Shown here piece after piece: positions 4,925 to 28,524 of a DNA stretch of 64,000 nt; the stretch's first letter is position 1; each line of letters begins with the position of its first letter. Below the pieces are notes generated by a model that was given only the letters and a program-made list of their open reading frames with translations, did not search any database and had not been told where the DNA came from. The DNA lies in the IMG/VR virus record IMGVR_UViG_3300022920_000004, positions 1-64,000 of that record. One strand, written 5' to 3'. This stretch comes from a virus. The translations under genes were made by a program, and so were the position numbers.

Positions 4925-4930
4925 ATAATT

Positions 4931-5662
4931 ATGTATAATGGCAAAACTCTTTCATTATCTTCTATAGTATGGAAGGTTATGAAAAACCCAATGGCATCTG
5001 ACTTATCTTATGAGGAAGCTGCAGAATTTTCACTTGAATTCATTAGATTAATAGGTGCTCCATTAGTATTTAGTGATATAATTAGTAAACCTATAGAACT
5101 TAATATGTATAAAGCTAAAGTACCTGATAACTTACTATATGTTAAAGGTATTAAATATATATGTGGTAATTGTGATGATAATTCATTTGATACTGCAATA
5201 GCTTTAACTCATGCTACAGATATATATCATTCTGGTAGCATGCCTAATGGTGTTGTTAGTCAATTTCAAGGTTACACTTATGTAATTGATAAAGGTATTG
5301 TTAAAACATCTTTAGAAGACGGTTATATAGTTATTTCTTATAAAGGATTAGCTGTAGATGAAAATGGTTATCCTTTAATACCAGATGATGAACCTTTTAA
5401 AATTGGATTAGAATATTATATTTTACATAGATATCTTGAACCAATGTATTTAATGGGTAAAATTACAGATAAAGCATTTGGTTATATTGAACAAAAAAGA
5501 CATTTTTATACTGCTAGAGCTAATAATTCATTACAGATGCCTGACGTAGATCATATGGAATCTATTATGAATGGTTTAAATAGAATTATTATTAATGATA
5601 CTGCTCAAAAGAATTTCTTTAGGACTTATGGAAGTAAAGAAAATACTAAACCATTTAAATAG
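4931..5662 (+). CDS. Tail tubular protein (crAss Ttub)
   Basis: ISYKGLAVDENGYPLIPD motif and gene order. Confidence 0.7.
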   Translation: MYNGKTLSLSSIVWKVMKNPMASDLSYEEAAEFSLEFIRLIGAPLVFSDIISKPIELNMYKAKVPDNLLYVKGIKYICGNCDDNSFDTAIALTHATDIYHSGSMPNGVVSQFQGYTYVIDKGIVKTSLEDGYIVISYKGLAVDENGYPLIPDDEPFKIGLEYYILHRYLEPMYLMGKITDKAFGYIEQKRHFYTARANNSLQMPDVDHMESIMNGLNRIIINDTAQKNFFRTYGSKENTKPFK

Positions 5663-9706: not shown

Positions 9707-10516
9707 ATGAACGATGAATTGAAAAAAATATTAGACATAATAATCAAAGAAAAAGGCGGTAGTTATAAAGACTATCGCCTTTTAATGGATAAAATAGGAT
9801 ACCACGAATCAAAGTCTGATTACAAAGCTGTTCAAGCTGAAGGAGGACCTGGTAGGGGTAAATACCAATATGAGATAGGTGAAAACAGAGGTGCTAACAC
9901 TGCTGTTAATAGATTATATGGGTACTATAGAGATAATAAATTACCTATTCCTAAATGGGTTAAAAATATTCCACCTGGTAAATCAGTAGATACGTCTAAG
10001 TTAAAAGATTATCAACAAGATATACTATTTTTAGCTGATAAAATGGGACATCCTAAAGCTGATTTTTCTAAAGTTATAAATGGAGAACAATCAACTACAG
10101 ACTTTTGGTTAAAAAATCATTGGTCTGGTAAGGATAAAGATGTTGCTAAAAGAACTGAAAGTTTTAATAGAGATTTAGAATCTTTTAAAACACAAAAACA
10201 GCCTCTATATAAAGAACCTACACAAGAAGATTTATATTCATATTTAGCTAAACCAAATGTTGGTAAATTCCCAAGTGAAGATCCTAATGAATATTCAAGA
10301 GGTGGTCAAATGGGAGATACTAATTTAAATAATGGTGAATTTAATCAGTTTAACGTTGGCGGTTCACATCAAACTAATCCTCATGGTGGAATTCCAATGG
10401 GAACTGGTAATAATGGTAAGACAAATACAGTAGAACAAGGAGAGTCTTCATACGATTTTGAAGATGGTAAATATATATTTAGTGCAAGATTAGGACTTAA
10501 TACAAAAATAAAATAA
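9707..10516 (+). CDS. Virion cargo protein with N-terminal lysozyme-like (muramidase/transglycosylase) domain
   Basis: IGYHES...GRGKYQY lysozyme-fold pattern; C-terminal GGSH...GG...VEQGE...YIFSARL segment. Confidence 0.5.
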   Translation: MNDELKKILDIIIKEKGGSYKDYRLLMDKIGYHESKSDYKAVQAEGGPGRGKYQYEIGENRGANTAVNRLYGYYRDNKLPIPKWVKNIPPGKSVDTSKLKDYQQDILFLADKMGHPKADFSKVINGEQSTTDFWLKNHWSGKDKDVAKRTESFNRDLESFKTQKQPLYKEPTQEDLYSYLAKPNVGKFPSEDPNEYSRGGQMGDTNLNNGEFNQFNVGGSHQTNPHGGIPMGTGNNGKTNTVEQGESSYDFEDGKYIFSARLGLNTKIK

Positions 10517-12291
10517 TGGAAGATATTACAGAACAATTTAATTTGCCAAAATACACAAGAGGCAAAAGTTTCGCAGATGCTAGCTCAATGATAATGGATA
10601 AATTTAGAGAACGTAAAGATCCTGAATCTAAACGTACTATGACAGAAATGTTAGATAGATTACGTCAAGCACAAGAGTTTGTTAAAGAACAAAACAAAAC
10701 TCCAGAGGAAAGACAACAAGAGCAAATGCAGATGGAACAACAGGCTCAAATGCAAGCTGAACAATCTCAACAACAAGTTGATCCTCAAATGCAACAACAA
10801 GCACCTCAAGAACAACCTCAACAAACACAATTTGCTGAAGGTGGTTTAATGGAATTTATGAAAGGTAATGCTGGTGGAATAGCTAGTGCCGGAGCTGGTG
10901 TTATGAATATGGTTGGAGATTTATCTGGTGAAGGAGTTTCTACAAATGCTGCAACTGCTGGATTAACTGGAGCTGCTAAAGGAGCTATGGCTGGAGCTGA
11001 GTTAGGACCTTGGGGAATGGCTGGAGGAGCTGTATTAGGAGGCATTACAAGTTTAATAGGTTCTGGTAAAGCTAAACGTGAGTTGCTAGAAAAAGAGCGT
11101 AATGAAACTCAAGGGGCTAGAAATCAATCTTTAAATACTTTTGCTGAAGGAGGTCAATTAAACCCTGATCCAACTTACCCACAAAACCCAAGCGATTTAA
11201 TTAAATCTTTTAAAACTAATCAAGAAGGTTTAGATTATAAAAATCCTTATCCTAATAGATCAAATAGGTTTCATAAGTTTGATGATTATCAGAAACGTTT
11301 AAAAAATAGATCTTTTGGGATATCACCAGTTACACCTAATTACGGGAGTAAATTACCTTTTGGAGATGGAACTGGAGGAGCTTCCCCTATTAAAGATGAA
11401 ATAAAATTAAAAAAAGCTTTATTAACAAGACCTGTTGTAACTAATACTAAAGAAGATTATAATGAGCAAATTAACAATGCTGTTAATAATTCATTTGCTA
11501 AAGGTGGTAAAATAACTGATACTAACCAATATGCTTTAGGTGATTGGTTAAAAACAGCGGGTAAAAATGTAGGAACTGCTGCTACTAAAACAGGTCAATT
11601 TTTAAATGAAAATAAAGGTGATATATTAAGATATGCACCAACAGCAGTTAATGCTTTTCAATTAGCTACATTACCAAAAGCTGAAACTGAAAGTTTAAAT
11701 AGACTTGATAATAGATTTAAACCTAATTATGTTGATGAAGCTGCTTTACAAAATATTAGTAGAGAAAACTATAATATGTCTAATCAAGCATTAGCTGGAG
11801 CTTCTGGTGGATCTACATCAGCATTACGTTCTAATATATTAGGTGCTGGTTTAAATAGAAATAAAGCATTATCTAGTGCTTATTTAAAAGCTGATGATAT
11901 TAATAGAGGTCAAGATAATACAGCGCAACAATTTAATGCTGGAATTGATAAAGTTAATTTACAACAATCTAATTCTGAGAAAGATATTAATGCTAGAAAT
12001 AGAGCTGCTAGAGATAATGAAAAATCTAAATTATTATCTGGAATTGGTACTGATATAGGGAGTATTGGTAAAGAAGAAAAGTATAAAGATATTATTGAAA
12101 AAATATCTGGTTATGATAAAGATGGTAAATTAGTTGCTGCTAAAAAAGCTAAGAGAGAAGCTGCTGAAAAGGATAGGGCAATTAAAAAGAATACAAAGAA
12201 AGTTATGAAATCTGTTAAAAAATCTCCTATTAAGGCTATTCAACGTAATGATTTTAATTTGTATAATAATTTAGAAACTTATAACGTATAA
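10516..12291 (+). CDS. Virion cargo/ejection protein (membrane-inserting candidate)
   Basis: Q-rich linker, Gly/Ala-rich hydrophobic hairpin (GAMAGAELGPWGMAGGAVLGG), FAxGG repeats and no Cys. Confidence 0.6.
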   Translation: MEDITEQFNLPKYTRGKSFADASSMIMDKFRERKDPESKRTMTEMLDRLRQAQEFVKEQNKTPEERQQEQMQMEQQAQMQAEQSQQQVDPQMQQQAPQEQPQQTQFAEGGLMEFMKGNAGGIASAGAGVMNMVGDLSGEGVSTNAATAGLTGAAKGAMAGAELGPWGMAGGAVLGGITSLIGSGKAKRELLEKERNETQGARNQSLNTFAEGGQLNPDPTYPQNPSDLIKSFKTNQEGLDYKNPYPNRSNRFHKFDDYQKRLKNRSFGISPVTPNYGSKLPFGDGTGGASPIKDEIKLKKALLTRPVVTNTKEDYNEQINNAVNNSFAKGGKITDTNQYALGDWLKTAGKNVGTAATKTGQFLNENKGDILRYAPTAVNAFQLATLPKAETESLNRLDNRFKPNYVDEAALQNISRENYNMSNQALAGASGGSTSALRSNILGAGLNRNKALSSAYLKADDINRGQDNTAQQFNAGIDKVNLQQSNSEKDINARNRAARDNEKSKLLSGIGTDIGSIGKEEKYKDIIEKISGYDKDGKLVAAKKAKREAAEKDRAIKKNTKKVMKSVKKSPIKAIQRNDFNLYNNLETYNV

Positions 12292-12293
12292 AC

Positions 12294-14459
12294 ATGGGAG
12301 TAAATAGATATTCTAACTTATCACAAGCTAAGTTTAATCCACTTAGCTTTCAAGAGTTATCAGCATTACCATTTCATCAAAGAAAGCAACATGATGCTAT
12401 GTCAGCACAAGCTGAAGAAGCTGGTATTATAGAATCACAAAGAATGGCTGCTGATGAAGAAGCTGTATCTGGAGCTATTAATGATTTTCAAGCTAAAACT
12501 GATGATTATATTAATAGATTAGATTCAGAAGGTTTCAACAATACTTCTAAATCAGAAATTAGAGAATTAGCTAGGGAACGTAAAGAATTAATGTCTACTG
12601 GTATTGTTGGTAGAAAACAAGCTCAATATGATAGATATGCTGCTAATATGAAGCAACTAGATAAGCGAAGAGATAAGGGTGATATTGATGTACTTAAACA
12701 TAGATTATTACAACAAAAAGCAGTTGAAGATTATAATACAGCTATTAAGAATGATCCTAACTCTACTTATCAAGACGTAATGGCTGTTAATGATTATGAT
12801 TATCAAAAAGAAGCTACTAAAATAGCTAAAGATGTAACATCTGCTATGCATACTAATAACTTTACTAAGTTTGGTTTTGAAGCTATTAAAGGAGCTCCTG
12901 GTCAATATATGCATGCTAAAACTCAAACTAAATATAAAAAAGCTGATGCTATTTCAAAAGCAATACAAGATATATTAGGTGCTAATAAAGATGTACAAAT
13001 GGATTTAGCACAACGTCAGCAACTTGGAATGTTTGGAGAAAAAGGTACTGGTGCTGATTACTTGAAAAGTGTTGCTGATAAAATTGGAAATGCTTATGAA
13101 GTTAATCAAACGACCATAACTAAAACAGGGTTTACACATAAAGCTCAGTTTGAAGAATACAAACGTAATTTAGATGATCAAACTAAACTTCAATTTGTAA
13201 GAGCTAGTCAAGGTGTTAGTACAACATTAAATTCTGGTAATTTACAAGATATTGAAAATTTAAATCAATCTGCTATAGTTGAGTTGAGTGGTTTGAAGAA
13301 AAAAATAGATACTTTTTCTGGTGATGTTAATAGTAGGGAGTATCATCTTTTAAAAACACAATATAATGAAAAATTTGCAACTCAAGCTAATTTAAAAAGT
13401 AGACTATCAGGAATTAAACAAGTTGCATTAAGTAATTTTAATACTGATGAAAAAACTTTATATAATGCTCACAATACAGTTTATGCAGGTGTTGATACTT
13501 CTTCTGAATATGACACGAGATATTCATTACAAGATAAAGTTGAAAATTTAGAAGATTATCAATCATTAATAAACAAATCCCCTATTCTAAAAAGAATAAT
13601 GTCTACTGGTGGTATGACATATTCTGATGAAAAACTTATAGATGTATTTAGTTCAACTATATTAGAAAGTAATAATAATAGATTACGTAAACAATTTGAT
13701 AATGGAGATATTAGTCAGAAAGAATTTGATGAAAGTTACACAAAACTTAATTTAAATAAAGATGGTTATGATCCCAATATTGAAACTAAATTAAATGCTA
13801 CATTTGCTAGAGGTAATAAAGCTATTGATACACATTTAAAAAATAGTCCTTACGCTGAATCATATGTTAGTTTTGCAGGACCTTCAACTGGAAAATATGC
13901 AACTTCTATAGGTGCTATCAATTCTAATTTAACTAACTCATTTACAGGAGCTGGTTATTCAACTGCGTATGATAATCAAGATCTTAATTTAAAATTACAA
14001 GAAATTGAAAAAGAAGCTGGTAAAAAAGTTAACAAATCAATTGAAGTAACTGATGGGTTTACTCCAGAAGGATATCCTATAGAACATTTAGTTTTAAGTG
14101 TAGATGGAAAATTAATTGATAGAATGCCTGTTACTAGAGGTAGTTTAGTTAGATCTGAATTTATGCAAGTTGGAAGAGAGCTTATGAAATCTTCTGATCC
14201 TGATAAATATTCAAGAGGAAAACAAATGGTTGCTAATTTACAACTACTTCCTTATGTTAACAAAGCTGGATTATTAACTTCTGCTAAAGAAGGAATTATA
14301 CCTATAAATTTAAAAGATGCTAAAACCAAAGAATCTATGGAAGTTTCATGGAAAAAAGAAGGTGATGGTTGGACTATTAAAATTGGAGATAGACCTGAAT
14401 CTATTAAATTATATAGTAAAAATGAAATTGTAAATTACTTATTTAATAAAAGTAAATAA
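12294..14459 (+). CDS. Virion cargo protein
   Basis: 721 aa, helical, N-terminal NRY..FNPLSFQEL, no Cys, position in the cargo operon. Confidence 0.55.
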   Translation: MGVNRYSNLSQAKFNPLSFQELSALPFHQRKQHDAMSAQAEEAGIIESQRMAADEEAVSGAINDFQAKTDDYINRLDSEGFNNTSKSEIRELARERKELMSTGIVGRKQAQYDRYAANMKQLDKRRDKGDIDVLKHRLLQQKAVEDYNTAIKNDPNSTYQDVMAVNDYDYQKEATKIAKDVTSAMHTNNFTKFGFEAIKGAPGQYMHAKTQTKYKKADAISKAIQDILGANKDVQMDLAQRQQLGMFGEKGTGADYLKSVADKIGNAYEVNQTTITKTGFTHKAQFEEYKRNLDDQTKLQFVRASQGVSTTLNSGNLQDIENLNQSAIVELSGLKKKIDTFSGDVNSREYHLLKTQYNEKFATQANLKSRLSGIKQVALSNFNTDEKTLYNAHNTVYAGVDTSSEYDTRYSLQDKVENLEDYQSLINKSPILKRIMSTGGMTYSDEKLIDVFSSTILESNNNRLRKQFDNGDISQKEFDESYTKLNLNKDGYDPNIETKLNATFARGNKAIDTHLKNSPYAESYVSFAGPSTGKYATSIGAINSNLTNSFTGAGYSTAYDNQDLNLKLQEIEKEAGKKVNKSIEVTDGFTPEGYPIEHLVLSVDGKLIDRMPVTRGSLVRSEFMQVGRELMKSSDPDKYSRGKQMVANLQLLPYVNKAGLLTSAKEGIIPINLKDAKTKESMEVSWKKEGDGWTIKIGDRPESIKLYSKNEIVNYLFNKSK

Positions 14460-17400
14460 TGGGAGATGAAGAATTTATTATAGAACATGACAATTCTATA
14501 TCAACTGATTATGATAAAGAATTTATTATTGATCATGGTCCAGATATAAAATATGATAATAGAATACAAGGATTAGATACCTCTAAATATACTAAATATT
14601 TAGGGGATAATATCTTTGTACCTACAAGTGGTATAGATGGTCTTAACAGTAGTAGAGCTTCTATGCAACCTATTACTCATAAATTAGGGAATGCTTTAGG
14701 AAGATTAACTAATATAATTCCTGAAGCAGTTGGGTCTGTAGCATCAGCATTAGATTTTGAAGATTATTTTAATCAAGATGATGAAGTTGGTAACTGGTTA
14801 ACTGATATAACTGAAGAGTGGAAACAATCTACTAATGAAGCTTTACCTATTTATAGGCAAAATCCTGGTAAATCATTAGATTTTGGAGATAGTGGATGGT
14901 GGATTGAAAATGGTTCAGCGTTAGTTAATTCTATAGGTGGTTTTGCTATAGGCGGTGGAGTTATTACTAAGGGTTTAACAGGACTTTCTAAGTTAACCAA
15001 AGCTAAGAAGTTAGCTGAATTAATGCTTACTACAAATAAAGCTGAAAGAGTTAATAGAGGTATTCAAACCGGTATAACTGCTACAATGTTAAATCAGTCA
15101 GAAGCTATTTTAGAATCTATGTCAGTTTATGATGATATATATAATGAAACTTTATTAAAATTAAACGAAGAAAATCCAGGTTCTGCTGATTTACCTGGAC
15201 AATTAGAAGAAAATAAAGCTGCTGCAAGACAAAAAGCTGCTGATGCTGCTAGTGCTACTGTAATGGCTAACAGAGCTAATATATTATTAAATATTACTTC
15301 TGCAAATATGTTTTTAAAAGCACCTAAATTAAGTAATAATTTACTTAAAAAAGAGACTTTTAGAACAAGTGCTAAAACTGGACTTATTGAAGGTGTACAA
15401 GAATCTGCTGAAGAATCTATAAACTTTTTAGCTGGTGAATATGGTAGAGCTGTTGGTAGAGATCAAGAATATGGTGTTAAAGAAATCTTAAATGATTTAG
15501 GTAAACCAGAAGCTATTGAAGCTGCTTTATTAGGTTTTATAGGTGGTATGGGACAAACTATTGTAACTAAAGAAGGTGTCAATAGAGTTCAAAAAACTGT
15601 AGATCCTATAACAGGTGAAAAAATGTCTGTTAAAGAATACAACAACCAAGCATATAATAAGCAGAAAGATATAATTGATGAAAATGAAGCTAATGCTAAA
15701 AAATCACAAGTTAAAAGTTTTACAAATTCTTTTAACAATGTAGCTGAAAATTTAAAGATATTAGACGCTGTTAAAAAAGCTAAAGCTGAAGGTAATACTG
15801 AAGAAGTTAAACGTTTAAAAGATTTACATTTAGACAATACAGCTTACTATAATTTTCAAAATGGTACAACTGAATCATTAATTAAATTATATGAAGAACT
15901 TCGTGATGGTGAACAGAAGGAAGATATGTCTAAAGATTATAAAGAACTTGCTAATAAAGCAATTACTAAAATTAAAACTTTAGAAAACTTTTATAATGAA
16001 TCAGGTAAATATAATAATCATCAACAAGTTTATATTAATAGATCTAATAGATATAATTTAGAAAACTATATTGATGAAGTTGGTGTTGAAGTTAGTAAAG
16101 TTAGTAATAATTTAAATGGATTTATAAGTAAGATAAGTGAATTATCTACTGGTGTTAAAAGTGATACTAATATAGGTGGTTATTTTTTAGATATAAATAA
16201 CATTGAGTTTAATCCAGCAAAAGAAGCTGGTGATACTAAAGCTGCTAATGAACTTGAAGAATTAAAAACTGTTATTAAAAATAGTGGTGATTATAAATCT
16301 TTATTAGAATTAAAAGAAGCTAAAGTTAAATTAGCAAAAGAATTAAAAGATAATATAATTGAAAATAGTCTTATAACATCTAAGGAATATCAACAAGCTT
16401 TTAAAGAACGTGTAGATAGTGTTAGACAAACTGCTGAAGAAAATATTGATAAGCAAGTTAAAAATGTTGAAAAAGAAATTAAGAACGATGAAGTTATTAA
16501 AAATGAAGCTGATAGACAAGCTGAAATAGCTGCTAAAAATGCTGAAACTGAACAAGCTATTGCTGATAAAAAAGCTGAAGTAGCTCAAACTACTGAAAAC
16601 TTAAATAATTTAGCTGATAACTTTAATGTAGGTGAAACTACTGATTTAGAGAATATGTTTGGTGAAAAGTATAAAGGTGTTTCAGGTGAAATATTATCAG
16701 TTGAAGAAAATGCTGATGGTACTAGAACTATAGAAGCTATGCTTGATGACGGTACTACTATTTCTACAAATGATAAAGTAGAACCAAACTTTAAAAATGA
16801 TAACATAGAAGACGTTTATAACACTGATGGAAGTGTTGAAGAGAATACTTCTAATGAGGAATCTGTTAAAAAAGCGGATGAAATAGCTGATACTAAAGAA
16901 GCTGAAAAAGATGGTAAGAAATTATCTGATGTTAAGCTTATGAGTACTTATAGAGATAGTGGTAAGACTTTAAAAGGTATACCACAAGCTTATATTGATT
17001 ATGAAAGAGAACCCATTAATAAAGTAGGTACAAAAGTTTATTTTGAGATTAATAAATCTATAGGGGATGGTTTAAAGAAAGGAAATAACTTTACAAAAGC
17101 AACTGAATTATATAATGATTTTATAAGTGGTAAAGAGTTATCTGCTGAAGATAAAAACTTTATGGTAGATTATTTACCATTTAAAGCTAAAATAAACAAC
17201 TCTGAGACAGTTTATACATTTTTAGAAAGTAAACCTAATTCAACTAATCCAAAGTCTTTAGAATCCTATAATAATAGAACTAGACCTCTTAGAATTAGTT
17301 TAATTAATCATTTAAAAAATGGTAGTGATATTAACTCACTTTATACAACTGTTAAAGGACAATATGGTGGAAGTATACAATTAGATACTAAAGGTTCTGA

Positions 17401-18640
17401 AAATAGCATATTAGATTTAGATGGTATTGATAGTTTAGAAGATATTGAATTATATGTAATAGATCAATATGGACAGCTTAAAGATATTAGTGGTATTCAT
17501 GCTAAAGATTGGACTAAAACTAAAAAGAATTGGAAAGGTTCTATTTATATGAAAACTAAATTATCTAATGGTAATCCATTTTATTTAAACTTAAACTTTG
17601 GTAAAGTATCTACAAAACAAGCTGAAATTATATTTGAAGTATATAGAAGTTTATTACAAAAAGGCAATAGACCAACTTCATTGATTAGTAATTTAGCACC
17701 TAATATACAATCATTAATTAAAAATAATTTAAAGAAAGAAATTGATTTAATTACAAAGACTGAAAATAAACCTTTTAATGAAATTATTATATCTGAATTA
17801 TTAGATTTAATATTTTGGGATGGTTCTAAAACAACAATGTCTGGTGATAAAAATGTTAAAAGTAGACTTCGTATTAATTATGAAACTAAAAGTGTTGAAT
17901 TTGGTGATAAATCTTATAAATTAAATGAACTTGGTGATGATAAAAAAGCTGAGTTTGTTGATTGGGTTTCTAAAAATAAAAATAGAAACTTTAAATTTAA
18001 ACCAAAACCTAGTGATATTAATCAAGCTTTAAATAGTACAGGTATAGACTACTTAGAATATGCTATTGCTGAGAAAGTTATTAATACAAATGCTAAAGTT
18101 AATCAACCATTATTTGAAGGTTTTACTAATTTATATTTGACTAATAGTATTGGTGGAGAAACTGCTGTACCAAAACCTAAAGCTGTTAACAAAGGTTTTA
18201 ATAAATCTACAGATACTAATTTAAAATTTGCTGAAGTAGATGGTAAAAGATATTATGCTAGTGCTGATAGTGGTAGAGTATTTGTAAGTAAAGATTTAGA
18301 TAAAGTAGATGGTAGAACTCCTTATGTACATGAACAAGTTGGTGCTTTAATTACAGATGTTAATTTAATTAATAAAATTGAAGCTAATATTCGTGGTAAT
18401 ATGTTTGCTGGAGCACCTGATATTAAATTAAATAAAAACTTTTCAAATAAATCTGAAAATAATGATGAAAATATTAGGATATCTCAAAATTTTATTGTAC
18501 CTTTGCAGGAGAATCCTTTATCTGATGAAGCTAAAACTATTGAAGATAAGCCTCTAAAGAAAAAAAGAGTTAAATTATCTAAAAAAGAAGCACAAGCTAG
18601 AGCATTAGCAGCAGCTAATAAATTAAACAAAAAATGTTAA
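14459..18640 (+). CDS. Large virion ejection protein (first of RNAP-associated trio)
   Basis: 1393 aa with EGVQESAEESIN...AALLGFIGG segment and coiled coils; its only Cys is the last residue. Confidence 0.65.
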   Translation: MGDEEFIIEHDNSISTDYDKEFIIDHGPDIKYDNRIQGLDTSKYTKYLGDNIFVPTSGIDGLNSSRASMQPITHKLGNALGRLTNIIPEAVGSVASALDFEDYFNQDDEVGNWLTDITEEWKQSTNEALPIYRQNPGKSLDFGDSGWWIENGSALVNSIGGFAIGGGVITKGLTGLSKLTKAKKLAELMLTTNKAERVNRGIQTGITATMLNQSEAILESMSVYDDIYNETLLKLNEENPGSADLPGQLEENKAAARQKAADAASATVMANRANILLNITSANMFLKAPKLSNNLLKKETFRTSAKTGLIEGVQESAEESINFLAGEYGRAVGRDQEYGVKEILNDLGKPEAIEAALLGFIGGMGQTIVTKEGVNRVQKTVDPITGEKMSVKEYNNQAYNKQKDIIDENEANAKKSQVKSFTNSFNNVAENLKILDAVKKAKAEGNTEEVKRLKDLHLDNTAYYNFQNGTTESLIKLYEELRDGEQKEDMSKDYKELANKAITKIKTLENFYNESGKYNNHQQVYINRSNRYNLENYIDEVGVEVSKVSNNLNGFISKISELSTGVKSDTNIGGYFLDINNIEFNPAKEAGDTKAANELEELKTVIKNSGDYKSLLELKEAKVKLAKELKDNIIENSLITSKEYQQAFKERVDSVRQTAEENIDKQVKNVEKEIKNDEVIKNEADRQAEIAAKNAETEQAIADKKAEVAQTTENLNNLADNFNVGETTDLENMFGEKYKGVSGEILSVEENADGTRTIEAMLDDGTTISTNDKVEPNFKNDNIEDVYNTDGSVEENTSNEESVKKADEIADTKEAEKDGKKLSDVKLMSTYRDSGKTLKGIPQAYIDYEREPINKVGTKVYFEINKSIGDGLKKGNNFTKATELYNDFISGKELSAEDKNFMVDYLPFKAKINNSETVYTFLESKPNSTNPKSLESYNNRTRPLRISLINHLKNGSDINSLYTTVKGQYGGSIQLDTKGSENSILDLDGIDSLEDIELYVIDQYGQLKDISGIHAKDWTKTKKNWKGSIYMKTKLSNGNPFYLNLNFGKVSTKQAEIIFEVYRSLLQKGNRPTSLISNLAPNIQSLIKNNLKKEIDLITKTENKPFNEIIISELLDLIFWDGSKTTMSGDKNVKSRLRINYETKSVEFGDKSYKLNELGDDKKAEFVDWVSKNKNRNFKFKPKPSDINQALNSTGIDYLEYAIAEKVINTNAKVNQPLFEGFTNLYLTNSIGGETAVPKPKAVNKGFNKSTDTNLKFAEVDGKRYYASADSGRVFVSKDLDKVDGRTPYVHEQVGALITDVNLINKIEANIRGNMFAGAPDIKLNKNFSNKSENNDENIRISQNFIVPLQENPLSDEAKTIEDKPLKKKRVKLSKKEAQARALAAANKLNKKC
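18468..18505 (+). promoter_or_regulatory. Intragenic Bacteroidota-type promoter upstream of the RNAP gene
   Basis: AAAATATTAGGA-N18-TACCTTTG, identical in elements and spacing to 2673-2710. Confidence 0.6.
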
Positions 18641-18643
18641 ACA

Positions 18644-21600
18644 ATGAGTTGTTTTATAGAAGTAAAAATTAATGGAAAACCAGTTGTATCTCAATTACAA
18701 CCTAAAATCCTAGAAATCCTTAAAAATAATCCTCATATTGTGTTAGAACAGTATGGGGATTTAAAGTATGTGGATGAATTAACAGATGAACAATTTGAAG
18801 AAGTTGCTGGTAAAAACTTTAATTACTTTGAAGACCCTTCTTTTTTAGGTGATTTTGGTGATTGGAAAAATAGTGACTCTAATATTAGACCTGAAAATGT
18901 TTATGACAATGGAGAACCTAAACTACATCAAGATAAAAATAATAAGAAATATTTTTATAGAAACAAGTATAATGATAAAGTTTACTTTCCATTAGAACAA
19001 AATGGTTTAAATTACATATATTCTAGTGAAGAGATACAAGATGGTACTCAATTACTAGCATATAAGCTGTTTACACGTAACTTTAATAATGACTGGAATG
19101 ATTTATCATTTATGAATGATAAAGCTACTAAAGAGGTTATTAAAGAGTATATGGAAGCTAGGATTGATACTTTAAGAAATATTGATTATGAATACGAAGC
19201 TGATGCTGTAGAAGATTCTTTAATTTATATTGATGAATGGGTTGATAATGTTAATGAATACTTTGAAAAGTTAGGATTTAAAATTGAAGAAACTGATTCT
19301 GAAATTCAAGATGAAACTGCTGATAATTCTAGAGGTTGGAGTAAAACATCACATGAAATGTCACCTAGTAGTAGTGTTGGTAGAAATATTTGGGCATTTT
19401 TATCTTTTTTACCAACTAGTAAATCTGCAGATCTTGTATTTAATGAATATGGTTTTGAAGATGTAAATGATATTTATAGTACATTAATATCTGAATTAAA
19501 AGATTTAAGTCCTACTATTATAGGTGGTCAAGTTGAAGATGTTTTTCAAACTATGCTTGATAAAATAGGTGAATTAGCTCATAAGAAACCTTATTTTAAA
19601 GAACTTTTAAATATATTAAATAATCCAAGTTTATCAGAAAATAGAAAGTCTGAATTTACACAAGCATTTAATTTAGTTAAAAACCCATACTTTGTTTCTG
19701 AAGTTGATTTTAGTGGTAAAAATAATATTAAACATACAGTTAAAGATGTAAGTCAAGTTAATGCTAACTTTAATTCTATTAAACGTGAATGGGGTTTCAA
19801 CTTTGAAACTATGTTTATAGATAAAGGTGTTTTAGATACTGTTAAACTTACTGAAATTAGAGACAGGACTAAAATGATTAGATCTGAAGTTGATCAGCTT
19901 AGAAAGACTATAAAGACTCCTGCAGATCTTGTACCAGCTATTAATAAAATACTTACAGTATTACATGATTTTGGTGCAGTAACTACAGAAGAAGGTTTTA
20001 AGTCTTATATAGGACAACTTGAAGATGTAATTATTCCAAATGAAGAATTATTAAATAATGTAAATGATGTATTATCTATTGTAGAGAAATTTGGTGATAA
20101 TTTACTTACTAAAGATCCTAAAAATAAAATTAAAGTATTTGATTATGATAAGTTTATTAATCCATTTAATACACAATCTTTATTTAGTGATTTAGCTAAA
20201 GAAGAAGCTTTTTATAAAGCTGATGGTTCTGATGCAAGTATTTATAGTGCTAAAAAATCATATTGGGTTTATAGCTTACCTTCTTATTTAGGTGGTGAAA
20301 TTAATAAATGGAAATCTAATATAGATGAACTTGAAAATTTATATAGAGAACCTGGTAATGAATCATCTAAAGTATTACAATATTTACTTGGTTATGAAGT
20401 AAATAGACTTGATAAAGTTAGAATACCAATTGCTGAAGCTAGAATTAAAGCTATTAACTTTGGTATATTTAATGTATTTCAAGAAAAGAAAACTGATGAC
20501 AATAGTTCTGACCCTAAGAATAATGGTGAATTATCTAAGACAGATGCTAATGTTGATAGTATGAATAGAGTTTTAGCGTATGTTAAAGGACAACAAAGTT
20601 TATTTAATACACCAACTCCTGCAGATAAATCAACTGCATATTTATTATCACATGGTTATTTTTTAAATACAAACATTAATCAAATTATAGATAAAAAAGC
20701 TGTCTTACCTTCTAAAGTAATACAAGTATTTTATGATTATTTTAGTAGTGAATATACTAGAATGATTAAAGCTGTTGAAACTATTAATGATCCTAATGCT
20801 AAAAAATATGTGCATTATCATCATAATAAATTTGGTGAAACTCATAAAAATGGTAAACTTATAGGTAATGCATTTAAATCTCAAATATTTGAAGGTTTAA
20901 GTTTTGAAAATATTAAAGATGTTTTACCTGAAATTGCTGATAAAATTTATCAAGATGATGGTAGACCAGCTTTAAAAACTATTGATTCATACGAAACTCA
21001 AATTAAAGATTATATACATAATATTTTAAAAGAAGGTATTGCTGATAAAGTTAGTTTTTTAACTAATGAAGGTATTATAACACCTAATAAAAATACTAAA
21101 GGTGGTTATGATTCAAATGGTATTGATGGTGCTATAATGAAAGCTTATGAAGCTTATGATTATCCAGTAATGAATGCTGTTAGTGATTATTATATTAATG
21201 GCTTAATTAGTAATGTTGAGTATTCTAAAATGTTTTCTGGAGATCCTGCATATTATAAAAACATGGTTGATTATGCTAAACGTATTCCATCTACTTATAC
21301 TGATGGTTTACAACTTAGATTAATGAACAATGATGAATTAACTTTTAACGCTGCAATTGTTACAGGTGTTGAAATTGCTGGTAGAAATCTTGCTGATATT
21401 AAAGAAATTGCTGGTGAAAAAATTGCTAATATGTATTCTAAAGGTAAAGTTAATACTACAGATGCACAAGCTTGGATTACACCTGCAAGATGGGAATTCT
21501 TAGTTAAAAGACTTGGTTTATGGAATAAATATCATGAATCAGCTTATCCTAAGATGTTAGGAACTGATAACACACCTTTTACTGATAAAGAAATTAAAGC

Positions 21601-24600
21601 TGTTGCACAACCTTTAAAAGGTGTTTATTTTAAAAGAAATAATGGTGTACCAACATTTTTAAAGTATTCTCAAGCTGTATTATTACCTGGTTTAATTAAA
21701 GGTACTGATTTACAGAGATTATATGATAAAATGGTTGAGAATGGTATTGATGAAACTATTACTTTTGATGGTATTAAAGTAGGTGCTACAACAACAGATA
21801 CTATTCATAATGAAGATGGTACATTATTAGAAGATTTTAATCTTACACCTTTAGAAATGGATAACAGAGGTTGGAAGTTACAACAAAATTTACCAACTAA
21901 AGGTATTAAAGATACTGATACAGGTTCTCAAATACAAAAGAATGTATTAGCTGGTATTGCTCATAATATGGAGAAACTATTTACTAAAAATGGTTCTGAT
22001 ATTACAGGTAAGGATTTATATAAAGATATTAATAATATTGTAGGTGCTTTATCACAAAAAGGTGTAGATGAGTTATCTAGAGAACTTGGTATAGATGAAG
22101 CAGGTAAAATAAATAATAAAGAAGGTCTTTATAAATTATTACTTGATGAAGCTAAGAAACGTAACATTAATGAAAACTTAATTAAATCTTTAGAGAAGGA
22201 ATTAACTATTTATGGTATTCCACAGGCTCAAAGTAAATTAATGAATATGTTTATGTCTATCGTTAAAGATAGAATTGTTAAAATTAAGACTAATGGAGGT
22301 TCTTTTATTCAAGTATCTAACTTTGGTATTGATAAATTAAATTATAAAGATACTCCAGGTGTTAAATGGTTTGTAGATCCTGTTAATGGTTTAAAACCAC
22401 CTCATATTGTTGATGTAGAAATTGATTTTAAAAATAAAGAAACTGGTGAAATTGAAAAACGTACTGTTAAAAAGATTAAACCTGGTCAAGTATTATTACC
22501 TGGTTCACTTTTAACTAAGTATATACCTAATTGGAAAGATATTCCTGCTGATAAATTAAAAGAAATGATATCTCCAGAGATATTAGAAAATATTATTGGT
22601 TATCGTATTCCAAATCAAGGTTTATCTTCAAATGATGCTTTAGAGATTGTAGGATTTTTACCTGAAGGTATGGGAGATGCTGTAGTTGCATATTCTGAAA
22701 TACCTACTAAAACTGGGTCAGATTTTGATATAGATAAAATGTTTATGATGATTCCATCATTCTCACAAGAGGATAATGGAAACTTAGTTTACGCTAAACC
22801 TATATTAGACGAAGAAGGTAATGAATTACCTCTATCAGAACAACCTAAAGAAGTATTGCAAAATAAATTAATAGAGTCTTATAAAGCTGTATTCTTACAT
22901 CCTGACGTTGTTAAAGATGTAATGACACCAATTGATTTTGATTATATTAAAAGAGATATTAATACTATATTTGAACAATCTGGTAAACAAAAAGACTTAC
23001 ATCATTTTGATGTTACTAGTCAAATTAATATAAAATATGATTTCTTAGCTGGTAAAGCTGGTGTTGGTCAAACGGCTAATATGTTAGTAGACCACGTAAG
23101 AGGAATGTTTACTAAAAATTCTTTAAGAGATACTTATATAGGTTGGGGACATAAAAATAATGTTAATGAAACATTATTTGATAAAGAATATTCTGTAGAA
23201 TTAAATGCTGAAGATTCTAAATATATATCTGAAACTGTTGGAATACCAATTGAAGAAGCTATTAAATATAAAATTAGTAATTCTATATCTGCAATTTTAA
23301 ATGCATTTGTTGATATTGCTAAAGATCCTTATATTACTAGAGGAAATTGGACTACACAGACTTCTAACGTTGGACTTATGATGTTAAGAGCTGGAATGCA
23401 CCCAATGTATGTTAATAGATTTATAGGACAACCTGTTATTAAAGAATATATTGATTTTGTAGTAAATGCTGAATCTAAATTTAATAATGAGCAGGGTAAT
23501 ATTAGAGAATTATTTTTAAAACATTATCTTAGAGAAAATGATGAGCCAGAACCTATGTATGATGAAAATCTTCAAGTACTATCATTAAAAGATTTAGATA
23601 AAGAGATTAAAAATTATACTTTTGAAAATCAATATCCAATTATACAAAAATTCTTTGAATTACAAGATCATTCTAAAAAAGTAGTACAAGGTATTAATGC
23701 TGCTAAACCTGATACACAATCATCAGGTAAAGATTTATCAAGTAGACTAATTGCTCAAAATATAATTGAAGAAATTGAAAATGCTGATTATAAAAAAGAA
23801 GTGGGGGCATTAACTAACTTTAGTGATAAATTAGTAGACCCAACAACTGGTGAAGAAACTATTTTAGGACATTATGTTAATAATTCTGTGTATTGGTTAG
23901 ATAGTGTAGTTAAAGCAAATCCTAATTTGTTTCAAATGGCTAATAAGAATGTTGAAAATACATTTAATGTTATCTCACAACAAATTAGAGGAACTAAATT
24001 ATTAAATCAAGATATTGCAGATTCATTATATAGTTCATATTATGCATACTCATTATCTGGTTTTGAAGCCCTTCAACTTAAAAATCCTGCTGTAGAATTA
24101 TTTGTTGAATTACCAAAACAATTAGCTGAATATAAACTTGAAGATGATACTAATTATTTATTAAACCAATTGGAAATTATATCTGATGGTGGTATGAGTT
24201 ATATTAAACTTCAAAATAAGAAGCGTTCTGAAGGTATACAAAATAAATTGTATAGAGGTTGGAAAGATTTATTTGAAGATAATAGAGATTTAGCAACTAA
24301 ATTAGTAAAGTATGCTTATTATCAATCTGGTTTTAAGAATAATATTAATGAATTTTTTAGTCATATTCCACATGAGTATTTAGTAGAAAATAGATTGAAT
24401 TATTACATTTATGATTTAGATGCTTCTACTAATAATATTCAAACTAAGTTTATAGACCAAATGTTTAGACATCAAGCTAATAATACATTACTTGTACCAA
24501 ACTTACCTAAGAAATTAGTTAGTGAATTAAAGGAAGGTATTTCATATAGATTTGAAAACACAGATTATGTTGAACTTAAACCTTTTGCAAAAGTTGGTGA

Positions 24601-25024
24601 TAATCTAGTAAAATTAGAAGGATATAATACAGATGGTAGTGGTATTTATGTTAAAACATTTAAATTAGGTATTGATAAAAACTTTATTGAATATAAATAT
24701 GATAAAGATGTTAAAATGTCTCAAATACCAAGTAATACTCCTGCTAATATGGAAGATATTAATAGTTATTTAAAGACTTTAAAAGTATCTAAAAAACCAG
24801 GTGAATTAAATACTAAGACTAAGAAAGTTAATACTGTACCAGCTCTTACAGAAGCTGAGAAGGAGTTTAATGATATTAATAAATCAGAAGCTTCAACTCA
24901 ATATCAAGAATTAGTAGATGAGGTTATTGAAACTGCTGGTAAAACAAATCAATTAGATTTGTTTTCTCAGGATATAAATGATAAGTTAGATGAATTTGAT
25001 AATGGTTGTAAAAATAATAAATAA
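18644..25024 (+). CDS. Virion-packaged single-chain two-barrel DNA-dependent RNA polymerase (phi14:2 gp66-like)
   Basis: 2126 aa; catalytic loop TKTGSDFDIDK (DFDID at 22721-22735), GYRIPNQG, TDAQAW, KYS and VDIAKDP motifs. Confidence 0.92.
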   Translation: MSCFIEVKINGKPVVSQLQPKILEILKNNPHIVLEQYGDLKYVDELTDEQFEEVAGKNFNYFEDPSFLGDFGDWKNSDSNIRPENVYDNGEPKLHQDKNNKKYFYRNKYNDKVYFPLEQNGLNYIYSSEEIQDGTQLLAYKLFTRNFNNDWNDLSFMNDKATKEVIKEYMEARIDTLRNIDYEYEADAVEDSLIYIDEWVDNVNEYFEKLGFKIEETDSEIQDETADNSRGWSKTSHEMSPSSSVGRNIWAFLSFLPTSKSADLVFNEYGFEDVNDIYSTLISELKDLSPTIIGGQVEDVFQTMLDKIGELAHKKPYFKELLNILNNPSLSENRKSEFTQAFNLVKNPYFVSEVDFSGKNNIKHTVKDVSQVNANFNSIKREWGFNFETMFIDKGVLDTVKLTEIRDRTKMIRSEVDQLRKTIKTPADLVPAINKILTVLHDFGAVTTEEGFKSYIGQLEDVIIPNEELLNNVNDVLSIVEKFGDNLLTKDPKNKIKVFDYDKFINPFNTQSLFSDLAKEEAFYKADGSDASIYSAKKSYWVYSLPSYLGGEINKWKSNIDELENLYREPGNESSKVLQYLLGYEVNRLDKVRIPIAEARIKAINFGIFNVFQEKKTDDNSSDPKNNGELSKTDANVDSMNRVLAYVKGQQSLFNTPTPADKSTAYLLSHGYFLNTNINQIIDKKAVLPSKVIQVFYDYFSSEYTRMIKAVETINDPNAKKYVHYHHNKFGETHKNGKLIGNAFKSQIFEGLSFENIKDVLPEIADKIYQDDGRPALKTIDSYETQIKDYIHNILKEGIADKVSFLTNEGIITPNKNTKGGYDSNGIDGAIMKAYEAYDYPVMNAVSDYYINGLISNVEYSKMFSGDPAYYKNMVDYAKRIPSTYTDGLQLRLMNNDELTFNAAIVTGVEIAGRNLADIKEIAGEKIANMYSKGKVNTTDAQAWITPARWEFLVKRLGLWNKYHESAYPKMLGTDNTPFTDKEIKAVAQPLKGVYFKRNNGVPTFLKYSQAVLLPGLIKGTDLQRLYDKMVENGIDETITFDGIKVGATTTDTIHNEDGTLLEDFNLTPLEMDNRGWKLQQNLPTKGIKDTDTGSQIQKNVLAGIAHNMEKLFTKNGSDITGKDLYKDINNIVGALSQKGVDELSRELGIDEAGKINNKEGLYKLLLDEAKKRNINENLIKSLEKELTIYGIPQAQSKLMNMFMSIVKDRIVKIKTNGGSFIQVSNFGIDKLNYKDTPGVKWFVDPVNGLKPPHIVDVEIDFKNKETGEIEKRTVKKIKPGQVLLPGSLLTKYIPNWKDIPADKLKEMISPEILENIIGYRIPNQGLSSNDALEIVGFLPEGMGDAVVAYSEIPTKTGSDFDIDKMFMMIPSFSQEDNGNLVYAKPILDEEGNELPLSEQPKEVLQNKLIESYKAVFLHPDVVKDVMTPIDFDYIKRDINTIFEQSGKQKDLHHFDVTSQINIKYDFLAGKAGVGQTANMLVDHVRGMFTKNSLRDTYIGWGHKNNVNETLFDKEYSVELNAEDSKYISETVGIPIEEAIKYKISNSISAILNAFVDIAKDPYITRGNWTTQTSNVGLMMLRAGMHPMYVNRFIGQPVIKEYIDFVVNAESKFNNEQGNIRELFLKHYLRENDEPEPMYDENLQVLSLKDLDKEIKNYTFENQYPIIQKFFELQDHSKKVVQGINAAKPDTQSSGKDLSSRLIAQNIIEEIENADYKKEVGALTNFSDKLVDPTTGEETILGHYVNNSVYWLDSVVKANPNLFQMANKNVENTFNVISQQIRGTKLLNQDIADSLYSSYYAYSLSGFEALQLKNPAVELFVELPKQLAEYKLEDDTNYLLNQLEIISDGGMSYIKLQNKKRSEGIQNKLYRGWKDLFEDNRDLATKLVKYAYYQSGFKNNINEFFSHIPHEYLVENRLNYYIYDLDASTNNIQTKFIDQMFRHQANNTLLVPNLPKKLVSELKEGISYRFENTDYVELKPFAKVGDNLVKLEGYNTDGSGIYVKTFKLGIDKNFIEYKYDKDVKMSQIPSNTPANMEDINSYLKTLKVSKKPGELNTKTKKVNTVPALTEAEKEFNDINKSEASTQYQELVDEVIETAGKTNQLDLFSQDINDKLDEFDNGCKNNK

Positions 25025-28000
25025 TGGCTTGTAAAATATTTAGAAATAAAGAAAATGAAATAGTTAATGTAGAGGCTCCTAATAAAAAGGAGTCTCTATT
25101 ATACAAAGCTATATTAGAATCATCTGAAATTAATGGTGATAAAGAATTAGCAATTAGACAATGGGTTACTGCTTATTTAGATGATTTTAAGAAGAAATTT
25201 GGAGATTGGGAAAATAACCCTGATGAATTTGTAGGTGATTTAGATGTTAATGGTGAACCAACTATAGAATTTTTTAATAAAGAATATGGTAAATTATTTG
25301 AAACTATTGAAACGGGTGATAAGAATATCTTAGAAGTTGATGAAAAATGGGTTGAAAGTAAGAAAAATATAATCTTAAAATCTATAACTGAAACTGTTGA
25401 TGATAATTATGATTCTAAAATAGATTTAACTACTGTTGAAGGTAAAATTACAAAAGTTTATAATAAACTACAAGATACTATTACTCATCAATTTAGACTT
25501 ATTAAAAGATTAGACGGTAGTGGTAAAGATTTTCAAAAAAATAAACAACAACGAATTGAAGAATTTGAAAAATTAACTAAAACTATTGAAAATTATAGAG
25601 ATGTTAATAAACTTAAAGGTGTTTTAACTTATTTAGAACATGCTCAAAAAAGTATTACAACACTTGAAAATAGCTTACGTAAGAAAGATAAATCAGTTGA
25701 TGATATAGAGCAAGTAATAAAAAATTATGAATCTTACAAAGCCATATTTAATATTATAGATGATATATCTGAATTATATCACGATTCTATACGTGCTGGA
25801 CATATCTCTGCTAAACCTGATATTTTAAAGCAAATCAACTATATTAAAAGTAAACATAATAACATTAATGGTGATATTAGTGGTTTAGTTAAAGATTATT
25901 TAAGACATACTTTAAATGATATTAAAAACTTTCCTAAAGTTGAAAGTAAATGGAAAGATACTTTAGAGAAAGAATATAATGAAACTGTTAGTAAAGTCTA
26001 TGGTAGTAAAGGTAAAACTCATAAAGAAAATTGGATTAATGAAAAATTACAAGAATTTAAACCTCAAATACAAAAGGATATAAATAAGGCTACAGATGCA
26101 TTAATTGATAACACTGCTTATGATATATCAGGATTTGCAAAAAACTTGATGAGTGGCTTTGAAATTAACTCTGACATAGTACAAATGTTTACTTCAATGG
26201 CTTTAGAAGTACGAGATAATATTATTGCTGACGTTACTGTTGTAGATGGTGAATTAGATGCATTATTTAAAGAATATAATAAAACTAATGGTGGTTATAA
26301 TCCTCGTAAACAATTTAAAGATATTATAGAAGTTGATTCTAAAGGTAATCATTTCTTTAAAGGTAAATATAAAACTGAATTTATGGAGAAGCATTATGAG
26401 CTTCAAAATAAATATAGTGAGATGTCAGCTATTAAAGAAAAATTAAAAGATAATCGTACAGATAAAACTCTTATAGCTGAATTAAAGGGTCTAAAAAAAA
26501 TTACTAAAGCTCTTAAAGATGATTTGTATATTTCAAGTCATTATAAAATATCTAAAGTTCATCCTAAATGGTTAAATGATTTTAGTAAAGTAAGTGAATC
26601 TAATATGAAAGTATTGAATGAAGCTTATAATAGATTAGAAACTGCTAATCTTAATACTAATGGATTTAGTTCTTTAATAATGGATGTTGGTTTTGTACCA
26701 GACACTTTATTTTATAAATTACCATCTATTACAGCTAGTAATTTTGAATTAGTACAATCTGGTAATACTAAAGGGTTGTTTGTAGATAAGATTAAAGATT
26801 TAACCACTATAAAAGCTGATGATATTGGGTATGCTACAGTTAAAACTAATTCTTCTGGTGAAATATTAAAAGATTTACCAATACATTTTAGAAATAAAAT
26901 TGATTCTAAAACTCAATCTTGGGATATTTTTACAATGTTAAAAATGGAATCTCATAATGGTATTGCATATAAACATCGTGCTAAGAAAGAGATTTATATG
27001 AATATGGTTATTGATATGGTTAGTAATAAAGATTTCTATGTTACTAAAGGAACTAGTGTTACTAAACAATTTTCTAAATATGCTAAACACAATAAAGAAG
27101 TTATTAAAAAAGGTGGTAGTAATATAGAAGATAAGTTACGTGATATAATGGATACTTTCATGTATGATATAACTAAGAAAGATGCTGGTAAACTTGGTCC
27201 TATTGATGTTCAGAAGCTAACAGGAATGATTAATGGTTATACTGGTATGATTGGTATGTCAATGAATTATCATTCAGCATTAGTCAATTTAGCAGGTGGT
27301 TATGCACAATTTATAATAAGTGCTGTAGCTAAAGACGTTATTAGTGTTAAAGATTTAAGAAAAGCATTTGCTGTGTATCATAAAAATACTGTAGATAATG
27401 CTAAAGATTTAAATTCTGCTGGTGAAGATTCATTTGTTAGTAAAATTAATGTAATGTTTGATACCTTTGGTGGACAACAAATTGGTACAGAATCATTTAT
27501 TAAAGATAAAGGTTGGAAGAAGTTTGCTAATATGCATGGATTAACATTTATGCATTCATTAGGAGAACATCAATTACAGTCTATTTTAACGATGGCTGTG
27601 CTTAATTCAACTAAAGCATTAGATAATAATGGAAGTGTCATTAAAGAAGCTAATAAAGAGCTTACTGTATTAGATGCTATTAAGTTAGAGGATGGTAAAT
27701 TAAAAATGAATCCTAAATTAGTTTATACAAGTCATTCACCTCTTACTAAATGGGAAGATGGTGGTAGAGTGCAAATGCAATCTAAGATTAAGTATAAAAT
27801 GATGGAAACTCTTGGTAGATATGATAATAATCATAAATCTGAGTTTGAAAAAACTTGGTTAGGTAGTTTATTATTTATGTATAAAAGATATTTCTTATCA
27901 ATGGGTGTTAGCAGGTTTAGAAATATTGGACACAGTATTAAAGATAAGGATAATATTGATGATGATTTAAAGTTTTATTCTAATGCTAATAAACGATTTG

Positions 28001-28524
28001 AAGAAGGTTATTATACTACAACAGCAAGATTTTTATTACAAAATGTTATAAAGAATGCTAAAATACTTAATTTAAAAAGTATAATTTCTGATTATAATAA
28101 ACTTACTGATTATGATAAAGGTAATATTAAAAAAGCTAGTATAGAAGCTGTATTAGCTCAAGTAATTGGTATAGTTTCTACTTTACTAGCTCAAGCTGCA
28201 GATGAAGATGATGATGAATTAGTATTCTTTTTAGCATATGAATTAAGACGTTTAGAATCTGAATTATGGCAATTTAGAGATCCAAATGAAGCAGTTATGA
28301 TTACTAAATCTCCATTTGCATCATTACGTACATTAGAATCATCTATAAGTTTATTAGGTAGAATAGCAAGTCCTTCAAAATGGGCTGAAGAATATGAAAC
28401 TGGTAGAAGAAAAGGAGAAATGAAAATTACTAAATTAGTTCAAGATTTAGTTCCTTTATGGAATAGAACTGATATTAGTAATGAAGAGAAATTTAATTAT
28501 TTGGATAATGTATTAACTAAATAA
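25024..28524 (+). CDS. Large virion ejection protein (third of RNAP-associated trio)
   Basis: 1166 aa; GEH..Q, G.Y...K...LGSLLFMYKRYF and EEGYY patterns; translationally coupled to RNAP (TAATG). Confidence 0.65.
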   Translation: MACKIFRNKENEIVNVEAPNKKESLLYKAILESSEINGDKELAIRQWVTAYLDDFKKKFGDWENNPDEFVGDLDVNGEPTIEFFNKEYGKLFETIETGDKNILEVDEKWVESKKNIILKSITETVDDNYDSKIDLTTVEGKITKVYNKLQDTITHQFRLIKRLDGSGKDFQKNKQQRIEEFEKLTKTIENYRDVNKLKGVLTYLEHAQKSITTLENSLRKKDKSVDDIEQVIKNYESYKAIFNIIDDISELYHDSIRAGHISAKPDILKQINYIKSKHNNINGDISGLVKDYLRHTLNDIKNFPKVESKWKDTLEKEYNETVSKVYGSKGKTHKENWINEKLQEFKPQIQKDINKATDALIDNTAYDISGFAKNLMSGFEINSDIVQMFTSMALEVRDNIIADVTVVDGELDALFKEYNKTNGGYNPRKQFKDIIEVDSKGNHFFKGKYKTEFMEKHYELQNKYSEMSAIKEKLKDNRTDKTLIAELKGLKKITKALKDDLYISSHYKISKVHPKWLNDFSKVSESNMKVLNEAYNRLETANLNTNGFSSLIMDVGFVPDTLFYKLPSITASNFELVQSGNTKGLFVDKIKDLTTIKADDIGYATVKTNSSGEILKDLPIHFRNKIDSKTQSWDIFTMLKMESHNGIAYKHRAKKEIYMNMVIDMVSNKDFYVTKGTSVTKQFSKYAKHNKEVIKKGGSNIEDKLRDIMDTFMYDITKKDAGKLGPIDVQKLTGMINGYTGMIGMSMNYHSALVNLAGGYAQFIISAVAKDVISVKDLRKAFAVYHKNTVDNAKDLNSAGEDSFVSKINVMFDTFGGQQIGTESFIKDKGWKKFANMHGLTFMHSLGEHQLQSILTMAVLNSTKALDNNGSVIKEANKELTVLDAIKLEDGKLKMNPKLVYTSHSPLTKWEDGGRVQMQSKIKYKMMETLGRYDNNHKSEFEKTWLGSLLFMYKRYFLSMGVSRFRNIGHSIKDKDNIDDDLKFYSNANKRFEEGYYTTTARFLLQNVIKNAKILNLKSIISDYNKLTDYDKGNIKKASIEAVLAQVIGIVSTLLAQAADEDDDELVFFLAYELRRLESELWQFRDPNEAVMITKSPFASLRTLESSISLLGRIASPSKWAEEYETGRRKGEMKITKLVQDLVPLWNRTDISNEEKFNYLDNVLTK

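Follow-up and report, generated by a model that had tools for sequence, protein, structure and literature searches.

In a window of 64,000 nucleotides from a crAss-like phage (positions 1 to 64,000 of the IMG/VR virus record IMGVR_UViG_3300022920_000004), we analysed the N-termini of two adjacent cargo proteins, the virion-packaged RNA polymerase (RNAP) P0001 and the gp65-type protein P0002. As judged from sequence profiles and a modelled fold, these N-termini are homologous copies of a single domain, ~85 residues long. At the sequence level the domain is best described as a crAss-specific Cys-hairpin followed by the leader found on units of polyvalent proteins, the two pieces being separable. 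The leader probably acts as an autonomous unit-start domain of injected proteins, and the function at the cysteine-bearing junctions between cargo proteins probably resides in the hairpin. The order of the three cargo genes is the same as in Cellulophaga phage phi14:2 (g067-g066-g065). The genes and modules are as follows.

14459..18640, + strand: P0003, upstream cargo protein, 1393 amino acids, counterpart of phi14:2 gp67 by gene position
18644..25024, + strand: P0001, virion-packaged RNAP, 2126 amino acids, DFDID motif at residue 1360 (phmmer to PDB 6VR4, phi14:2 gp66, E 1.9e-277; identity with gp66 31.9%, covering 95% of the length)
18644..18928, + strand: N-terminal module of P0001, residues 1-95; a Cys-hairpin is followed by the leader, which has FGDW at 71-74 and NGEP at 89-92 (module hidden Markov model (HMM), E 3e-24)
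25024..28524, + strand: P0002, gp65-type cargo protein, 1166 amino acids, conserved family body at residues 85-1166
25024..25281, + strand: N-terminal module of P0002, residues 1-86, Cys-hairpin at 1-15 and leader at 16-86 (RNAP-only HMM, hhalign, fold match)

A sequence-only reading of the window had proposed that P0001 and P0002 share this module. The motifs that it quoted, MSC...FGDWKN...NGEPKL in P0001 and MAC...FGDWEN...NGEPTI in P0002, are located where it placed them. Direct comparison of the first 120 residues by BLASTP gives 18.9 bits (E 0.014, 14 identities in 36 positions), which is weak if taken alone. An HMM built from the RNAP N-termini of other phages, with no sequence from the window, scores P0002 at 18.0 bits (E 5e-5 among 294 open reading frames (ORFs)) and its homolog from the related locus L002 at 21.2 bits, the next match having 7.4 bits. 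Alignment by hhalign of the N-termini of the P0002 family with those of RNAPs yields a probability of 97.6% (E 2.9e-12, 46 columns). The profile similarity, by which the sequence-only reading had suggested to check its claim, was thus found.

The fold leads to the same conclusion. The AlphaFold model of the P0002 module has a mean predicted local distance difference test score (pLDDT) of 86.1; the underlying alignment included RNAP heads, as we call these N-terminal regions, and did not include phi14:2. The top Foldseek match of the model is 6VR4; the root mean square deviation (rmsd) is 2.5 A over 74 columns. The model superposes on residues 2-98 of this structure with Z 8.0 and rmsd 2.8 A over 76 residues, and 6VR4 is the sole match above Z 3.2 among 48,161 PDB representatives (Z 7.6-8.0, rmsd 2.4-2.8 A and 74-76 residues). 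The module profile also finds 6VR4, at E 5e-7. Residues 2-98 of phi14:2 gp66 are therefore the same domain by sequence and fold, with the same MxC start. The gp66 preprint gives no function to this N-terminal region and mentions neither the motif nor the cysteines. An ESM Atlas feature search with residues 1-90 gave no usable match. Two further claims of the sequence-only reading were borne out: the remaining parts of P0001 and P0002 are dissimilar in pairwise comparison, and the protein that it called Protein A, which is P0003 (14459-18640), lacks the module. P0003 also has no N-terminal cysteine.

The module profile (alignment A1) was searched against 1.84 billion representative proteins and matched 1,628 of them at E<=1e-3, including 173 at E<=1e-10. 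The best 149 of the 1,628 were analysed in detail. Full-length copies at the extreme N-terminus were observed in 32 of the 149; these are either crAss-type RNAPs, which also have a cysteine within the last 1-3 residues, or gp65-type proteins. In the other 117, as a rule only profile positions ~37-94 match, mostly inside the protein and without a terminal cysteine. The first copy lies at most 60 residues from the N-terminus in 46 of these proteins and further in for 71. Re-scanning gave 2-6 copies per protein, and the search table has up to 7 matched stretches. Four of the 117 were examined and are classic polyvalent proteins; P0020 contains six ART-PolyVal domains together with LPD23 and MuF_C.

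The leader of the polyvalent proteins is nearly invariant, LAPNGKPSNLT.EQY.LVRT.EFK.WFGDWENDP.NASKVVDENGEP, and stands before each ART core; in 163 of 242 copies it is followed by xHG[ST]. The Pfam domain ART-PolyVal (PF18760) is located right behind the leader, and its model begins inside the VD.NGEP segment. In the ART-PolyVal units of Iyer et al. 2017 (PMC5512222), the corresponding stretch LAPNGKPSNLT..QY.LVRT..FK.WFGDWENDP...VVDENGEP is homologous to residues 16-86 of P0002 and to the RNAP head. Alignment by hhalign of the gp65-type heads, including P0002, with the polyvalent leaders covers residues 16-86 of P0002 (99.8%, E 2.7e-28). The leader is described neither in the ART section of that paper nor in the Pfam model. 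Unlike the ART-PolyVal units, P0001 and P0002 have no recognisable ART core, and the crAss copies have two additions, a 16-residue helix insertion within the leader and the N-terminal Cys-hairpin. Intermediates exist: the crAss-type proteins P0149, P0167 and P0160 start with MxC, the hairpin and the leader, behind which Pfam places ART-PolyVal, beginning at residue 70-71 and scoring above its cut-off.

The module thus consists of two pieces, since the leader is common to polyvalent proteins, the hairpin is found only on crAss-type proteins, and intermediates occur. The first piece, residues 1-15 of P0002, is M-x-C-K/T-I/V followed by a beta-hairpin and is seen only on the heads of crAss-type proteins. 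The second piece, residues 16-86, is a small helical leader APNG..S.L[FY]...F..FGDW...D.NGEP. The earlier description of the module as portable holds: it is carried by the RNAP and by gp65-type proteins from several lineages, whose downstream regions differ, and it also stands before ART domains.

P0002 is, by its sequence, an ortholog of phi14:2 gp65. In jackhmmer searches its residues 86-1164 align with residues 340-1419 of gp65, the conserved C-terminal body of ~1,000 amino acids, and the assignment follows from this alignment; the same iterated search also matches crAss001 gp49 and all downstream proteins of the related loci. The N-terminal region of P0002 is shortened to ~85 residues. The zincin motif HExxH was found in the N-terminal region of 7 of 9 related gp65-type downstream proteins checked; P0002, the protein of L002 and crAss001 gp49 are without it, as are P0003 and P0001, so that none of the three cargo proteins of the window (14459-28524) has it. 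If cargo processing requires a zincin protease, the phage of the window either manages without one or encodes it elsewhere.

The leader is under purifying selection. In distant relatives of P0002, identity is 59-60% in the module, 31-33% in the 250 residues that follow and 47-51% in the body; as the module surpasses the rest of the protein in conservation, it must be under selection even with no ART domain behind it. The local alignment scores of the P0002 module are 152-224 with gp65-type heads, 84-118 with polyvalent leaders, and 53-86 with RNAP heads, that of its own neighbour included. It scores higher with the former two, and a recent copying from the RNAP head of the same phage was therefore rejected. 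In the simplest history, the ART core of a leader+ART head disappeared, and the best explanation of the present state is that the gp65 ortholog of the window retains the leader, whereas the ART core and the zincin domain which its relatives have behind the leader were lost. A more diverged copy of the leader is present on every stand-alone RNAP examined, across lineages that are 31-45% identical.

The cysteines of the cargo proteins form a second conserved system. The three cargo proteins of the window contain 4 cysteines in 4,685 residues, compared to 53 expected from the other ORFs of the window (P 2e-18), and all four are at the ends that face a junction.

18635..18637, + strand: Cys1393, last residue and only cysteine of P0003 (translation)
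18650..18652, + strand: Cys3 of P0001, one of its only two cysteines (translation)
25007..25009, + strand: Cys2122 of P0001 (2126 amino acids), fifth from the C-terminus, in ...DNGCKNNK (translation)
25030..25032, + strand: Cys3 of P0002, the sole cysteine in 1166 amino acids (translation)

The sequence-only reading had supposed that the protein preceding each module ends in a cysteine; this is correct for P0003, whereas in the RNAP the residue is only near the end. In database relatives of P0002 the single cysteine is residue 3 in 10 of 11 proteins and residue 5 in the remaining one. The terminal-cysteine rule is also observed in phi14:2 and in dozens of related loci, and among 129 distinct giant proteins (304,265 residues) there are 157 terminal and 105 internal cysteines. 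The terminal-only cysteines are thus real and conserved. In Bacteroides phage crAss001 (L016, MH675552) the cysteines are C2339 of 2341 residues in gp47, C5 and C2404 of 2412 in gp50, and C5 in gp49. Here gene 47 is on the strand opposite to genes 50 and 49, yet the rule is kept, and a DNA- or RNA-level cause of the paired cysteine codons at gene junctions was rejected for this reason. There is an exception at L003:5763-9998, where the only cysteine of the upstream protein is 31 residues before the C-terminus (1380 of 1411). The three proteins before the cargo block of the window (9707-14459; 269, 591 and 721 amino acids) have no cysteines.

Where cargo proteins are fused, the junction pair of cysteines is absent. 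The 4,641-residue fusion of L009 has its only cysteine at 4640. In L029 the RNAP is fused to the gp65-type protein, and the only cysteine in 3,516 residues is residue 7; an ORF of L045 that matches this fusion runs off the end of the locus and has the same single Cys7. In L073 the upstream protein, the RNAP and the gp65-type protein form one ORF of 6,300 amino acids, in which another segment (residues ~4820-5024) has taken the place of the RNAP tail (KQRRKECE) and of the initial 109 residues of the gp65 head, both junction cysteines included; this segment holds an EPNQIK... piece resembling the ART tail, and HEYAHH. It is possible that the fusions of L029, L045 and L073 are assembly artefacts. 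The parts of the crassvirus literature considered here mention neither the cargo cysteines nor a disulfide between cargo proteins. The crAss001 tail does have structural disulfides, and in Bayfield et al. (PMC10172136) both reduced and untreated crAss001 virions were analysed by mass spectrometry. None of the crassvirus structures shows the cargo proteins.

On comparison of heads across loci, the terminal cysteines appear separable from the leader. We consider it probable that the leader forms an autonomous domain and would mark the start of an independently acting unit within an injected protein, where it may serve as a folding or handling cap or bind a conserved partner. The junction chemistry would belong to the hairpin and the terminal cysteines and not to the FGDW/NGEP leader, the likely disulfide being formed by the terminal cysteine of the preceding protein and Cys3 of the next one. 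Polyvalent proteins and crAss cargo are alike in being packaged and injected, as known or predicted; for the polyvalent proteins, which occur in phages and conjugative elements, packaging or transfer with subsequent injection is predicted by Iyer et al. 2017 (PMC5512222).

The foremost competing explanation is that of the sequence-only reading: the module receives the C-terminal cysteine tail of the preceding protein, docking coming first and the cysteine lock after it, in a chain of the upstream protein, the RNAP and the gp65-type protein. We find it unlikely, although several observations speak for it, some of which also weigh against the role favoured here. The four cysteines of the window all face junctions, and the rule extends to phi14:2, to dozens of loci and to crAss001 with its gene 47 on the other strand. 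All 32 N-terminal full-length copies of the module have a cysteine at residue 3-5, so in these copies the leader and the cysteine may function jointly, and no stand-alone RNAP examined is without a leader. In the fused upstream+RNAP proteins (L009, L011, L050, L072), which have no cysteine pair at the junction, no leader is seen there either; a docking role would likewise predict the loss of the leader in fusions. These lineages are, however, only 24-30% identical, and a leader might be undetectable in them, so that its absence is weak evidence; phmmer gave no link between them and P0003. Finally, there is a precedent in the pre-ejectosome of cyanopodophage A4, where a C-terminal helix of gp27 lies in a cleft of gp26, fixed by a Cys1715-Cys5 disulfide in which Cys1715 is close to the C-terminus (PMC12002296). 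This is the same geometry as was proposed for the crAss cargo. However, the receiving site in A4 is a cleft between domains of an all-alpha protein, unlike the module of the window, and gp26 was rejected as a homolog of the module, having no match to it by profile or in the fold list.

Other observations argue against a receiver. In the 117 proteins described above the leader core is mostly internal, is repeated up to 6-7 times, and has no terminal cysteine with it. Many gp65 orthologs keep the N-terminal cysteine and follow a cysteine-tailed RNAP with no detectable leader. They have heads of type B (L007, L010, L018, L020, L037, L040), type C (phi14:2, L008, L021 and others, which share only the first 8 residues, MsCxIk) or type D (L022, L028 and others). 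Thus phi14:2 differs from the window in that its downstream gp65 has the cysteine on another head type than P0002. Heads from gut crAss-like phages have Cys3, then a 40-residue extension and then the leader (probability 96.4%). In crAss001 the head types have changed places compared with the window: the head of the RNAP gp50 is of type B, and gp49 matches the leader weakly (15 bits).

Nor do the types of tails and heads covary as they would in a cognate docking pair. Tails of the QLD[LI]F...C type precede both leader heads and type C heads; in particular, the QLDLF...C tail of the RNAP is followed by a leader head in the window and by type C heads in L003, L006, L038, L041 and L047. Tails of the IIKNC type precede leader heads and type B heads (L037). 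Conversely, leader-headed RNAPs follow very different tails, ...NKLNKKC, ...EIKKICGF and ...KEDDKKQPKCKK. Tail charge had been suggested as a possible cause of the order of the chain. The first junction of the window is indeed complementary (+8 and -9), but the second is not (-3 and -6), and over 65 distinct junctions the trend is weak (Spearman rho -0.26, p 0.03, with kinship ignored). A charge code that orders the chain was therefore rejected.

The module had also been compared to the docking domains of polyketide synthases (PKS), both being short elements at the termini of giant proteins that follow one another and are encoded in this order. In PKS, docking pairs are cognate and covary. In the crAss cargo the tail type does not track the head type, and the supposed receiver is mostly found inside single polypeptides. 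As the leader is widespread before enzyme units, it probably did not arise as a socket for the cysteine tail of a neighbour.

Another possibility, which we regard as quite improbable, is that the leader belongs to the ART-PolyVal enzyme as an accessory subdomain at its N-terminus (e.g. for substrate or NAD handling); on the RNAP and P0002 it would be a relic of a lost ART fusion kept only as structural packing. Most leader copies do directly precede an ART core, the Pfam model starts within the leader's VD.NGEP, close relatives of P0002 have both leader and ART, and ART fusions to N4-like virion RNAPs are on record in Iyer et al. 2017 (PMC5512222). However, the leader of the P0002 family exceeds the rest of the protein in conservation with no ART behind it, and the RNAPs keep theirs across the divergence given above. 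Neither P0001 nor P0002 shows an ART core in its sequence: there was no Pfam match at E 0.1 (the Pfam cut-off of PF18760 is 31.2 bits), nor were there strands with the characteristic residues (His in strand 1, Tyr in strand 2, Asp in strand 5). NGEP is followed by TIEFFNK in P0002 and by KLHQDK in P0001, not by ..YHG[ST]. Alignment by hhalign of the RNAP heads with leader+ART units (97.5%, E 5.7e-12) ends at NGEP or a few residues past it.

The model of residues 1-210 of P0001 (pLDDT 89) consists of a hairpin and long helices and matches residues 2-195 of 6VR4 with Z 10.7; no ART chain was among its top 50 PDB matches, although the fold may be present all the same. The N-terminal region of the RNAP as a decayed ART is thus not supported. 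A sequence-based search found no solved structure of a leader+ART unit. The gp65 ortholog L008:17656-19755, whose head is of type C, matches ART-PolyVal below the threshold (28.7 bits, residues 135-203) with no recognisable leader ahead of the match, and ART units may therefore occur with other heads too.

It is more doubtful still that the leader is a general unit-start domain gripping the C-terminal segment of the preceding unit, within the chain in polyvalent proteins and between chains in crassviruses, with the Cys-hairpin disulfide as a lock. Were this the case, the cargo would exit the capsid as one ordered thread and fall apart in the reducing cytoplasm. A chance or compositional likeness of lysine- and asparagine-rich proteins, to which the weak BLASTP score and the AT-rich genome (23-33% G+C per 2-kb segment) could point, is refuted by the independent profile, profile-profile and fold evidence and is practically excluded.

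The cargo genes belong to a block of four large proteins on the + strand (12294-28524). Pfam and PHROGs scans of the four proteins gave nothing relevant, P0002 having no match in either. No related loci were found in searches with P0017 and P0013. The C-terminal tail of P0001 contains one more candidate signal, at the start of the segment that the sequence-only reading had called an acidic donor tail.

24950..24964, + strand: QLDLF pentapeptide, residues 2103-2107 of P0001 (translation)

It fits QL[SD]LF, the consensus of bacterial beta-clamp-binding peptides. The pattern Q[LIM][DSEN][LIMT]F occurs in the last 60 residues of 8 of 39 distinct RNAP tails from related loci (three times as QLDLF, twice as QLSLF, and once each as QLDIF, QLDMF and QLDTF), and only twice in the 332,848 residues that make up the rest of the giant proteins. 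Judging by this pattern, the polymerase might, once injected, bind the sliding clamp of the host.

The leader is a portable, conserved and previously undescribed domain. It is common, with more than 1,600 cluster representatives, had no Pfam or PHROG model, and is now named and bounded. Through it, the N-termini of the crassvirus virion RNAP and of the gp65-type cargo protein are tied to the polyvalent proteins found in phages and conjugative elements, and this supports the notion of the crassvirus cargo block as a polyvalent protein divided into separate parts. Its strong conservation across unrelated carriers suggests a conserved partner. At every cysteine-bearing head the conserved feature is the first 8-15 residues and not FGDW/NGEP, and it is these residues that should guide tests of the proposed disulfide-linked ejection chain.

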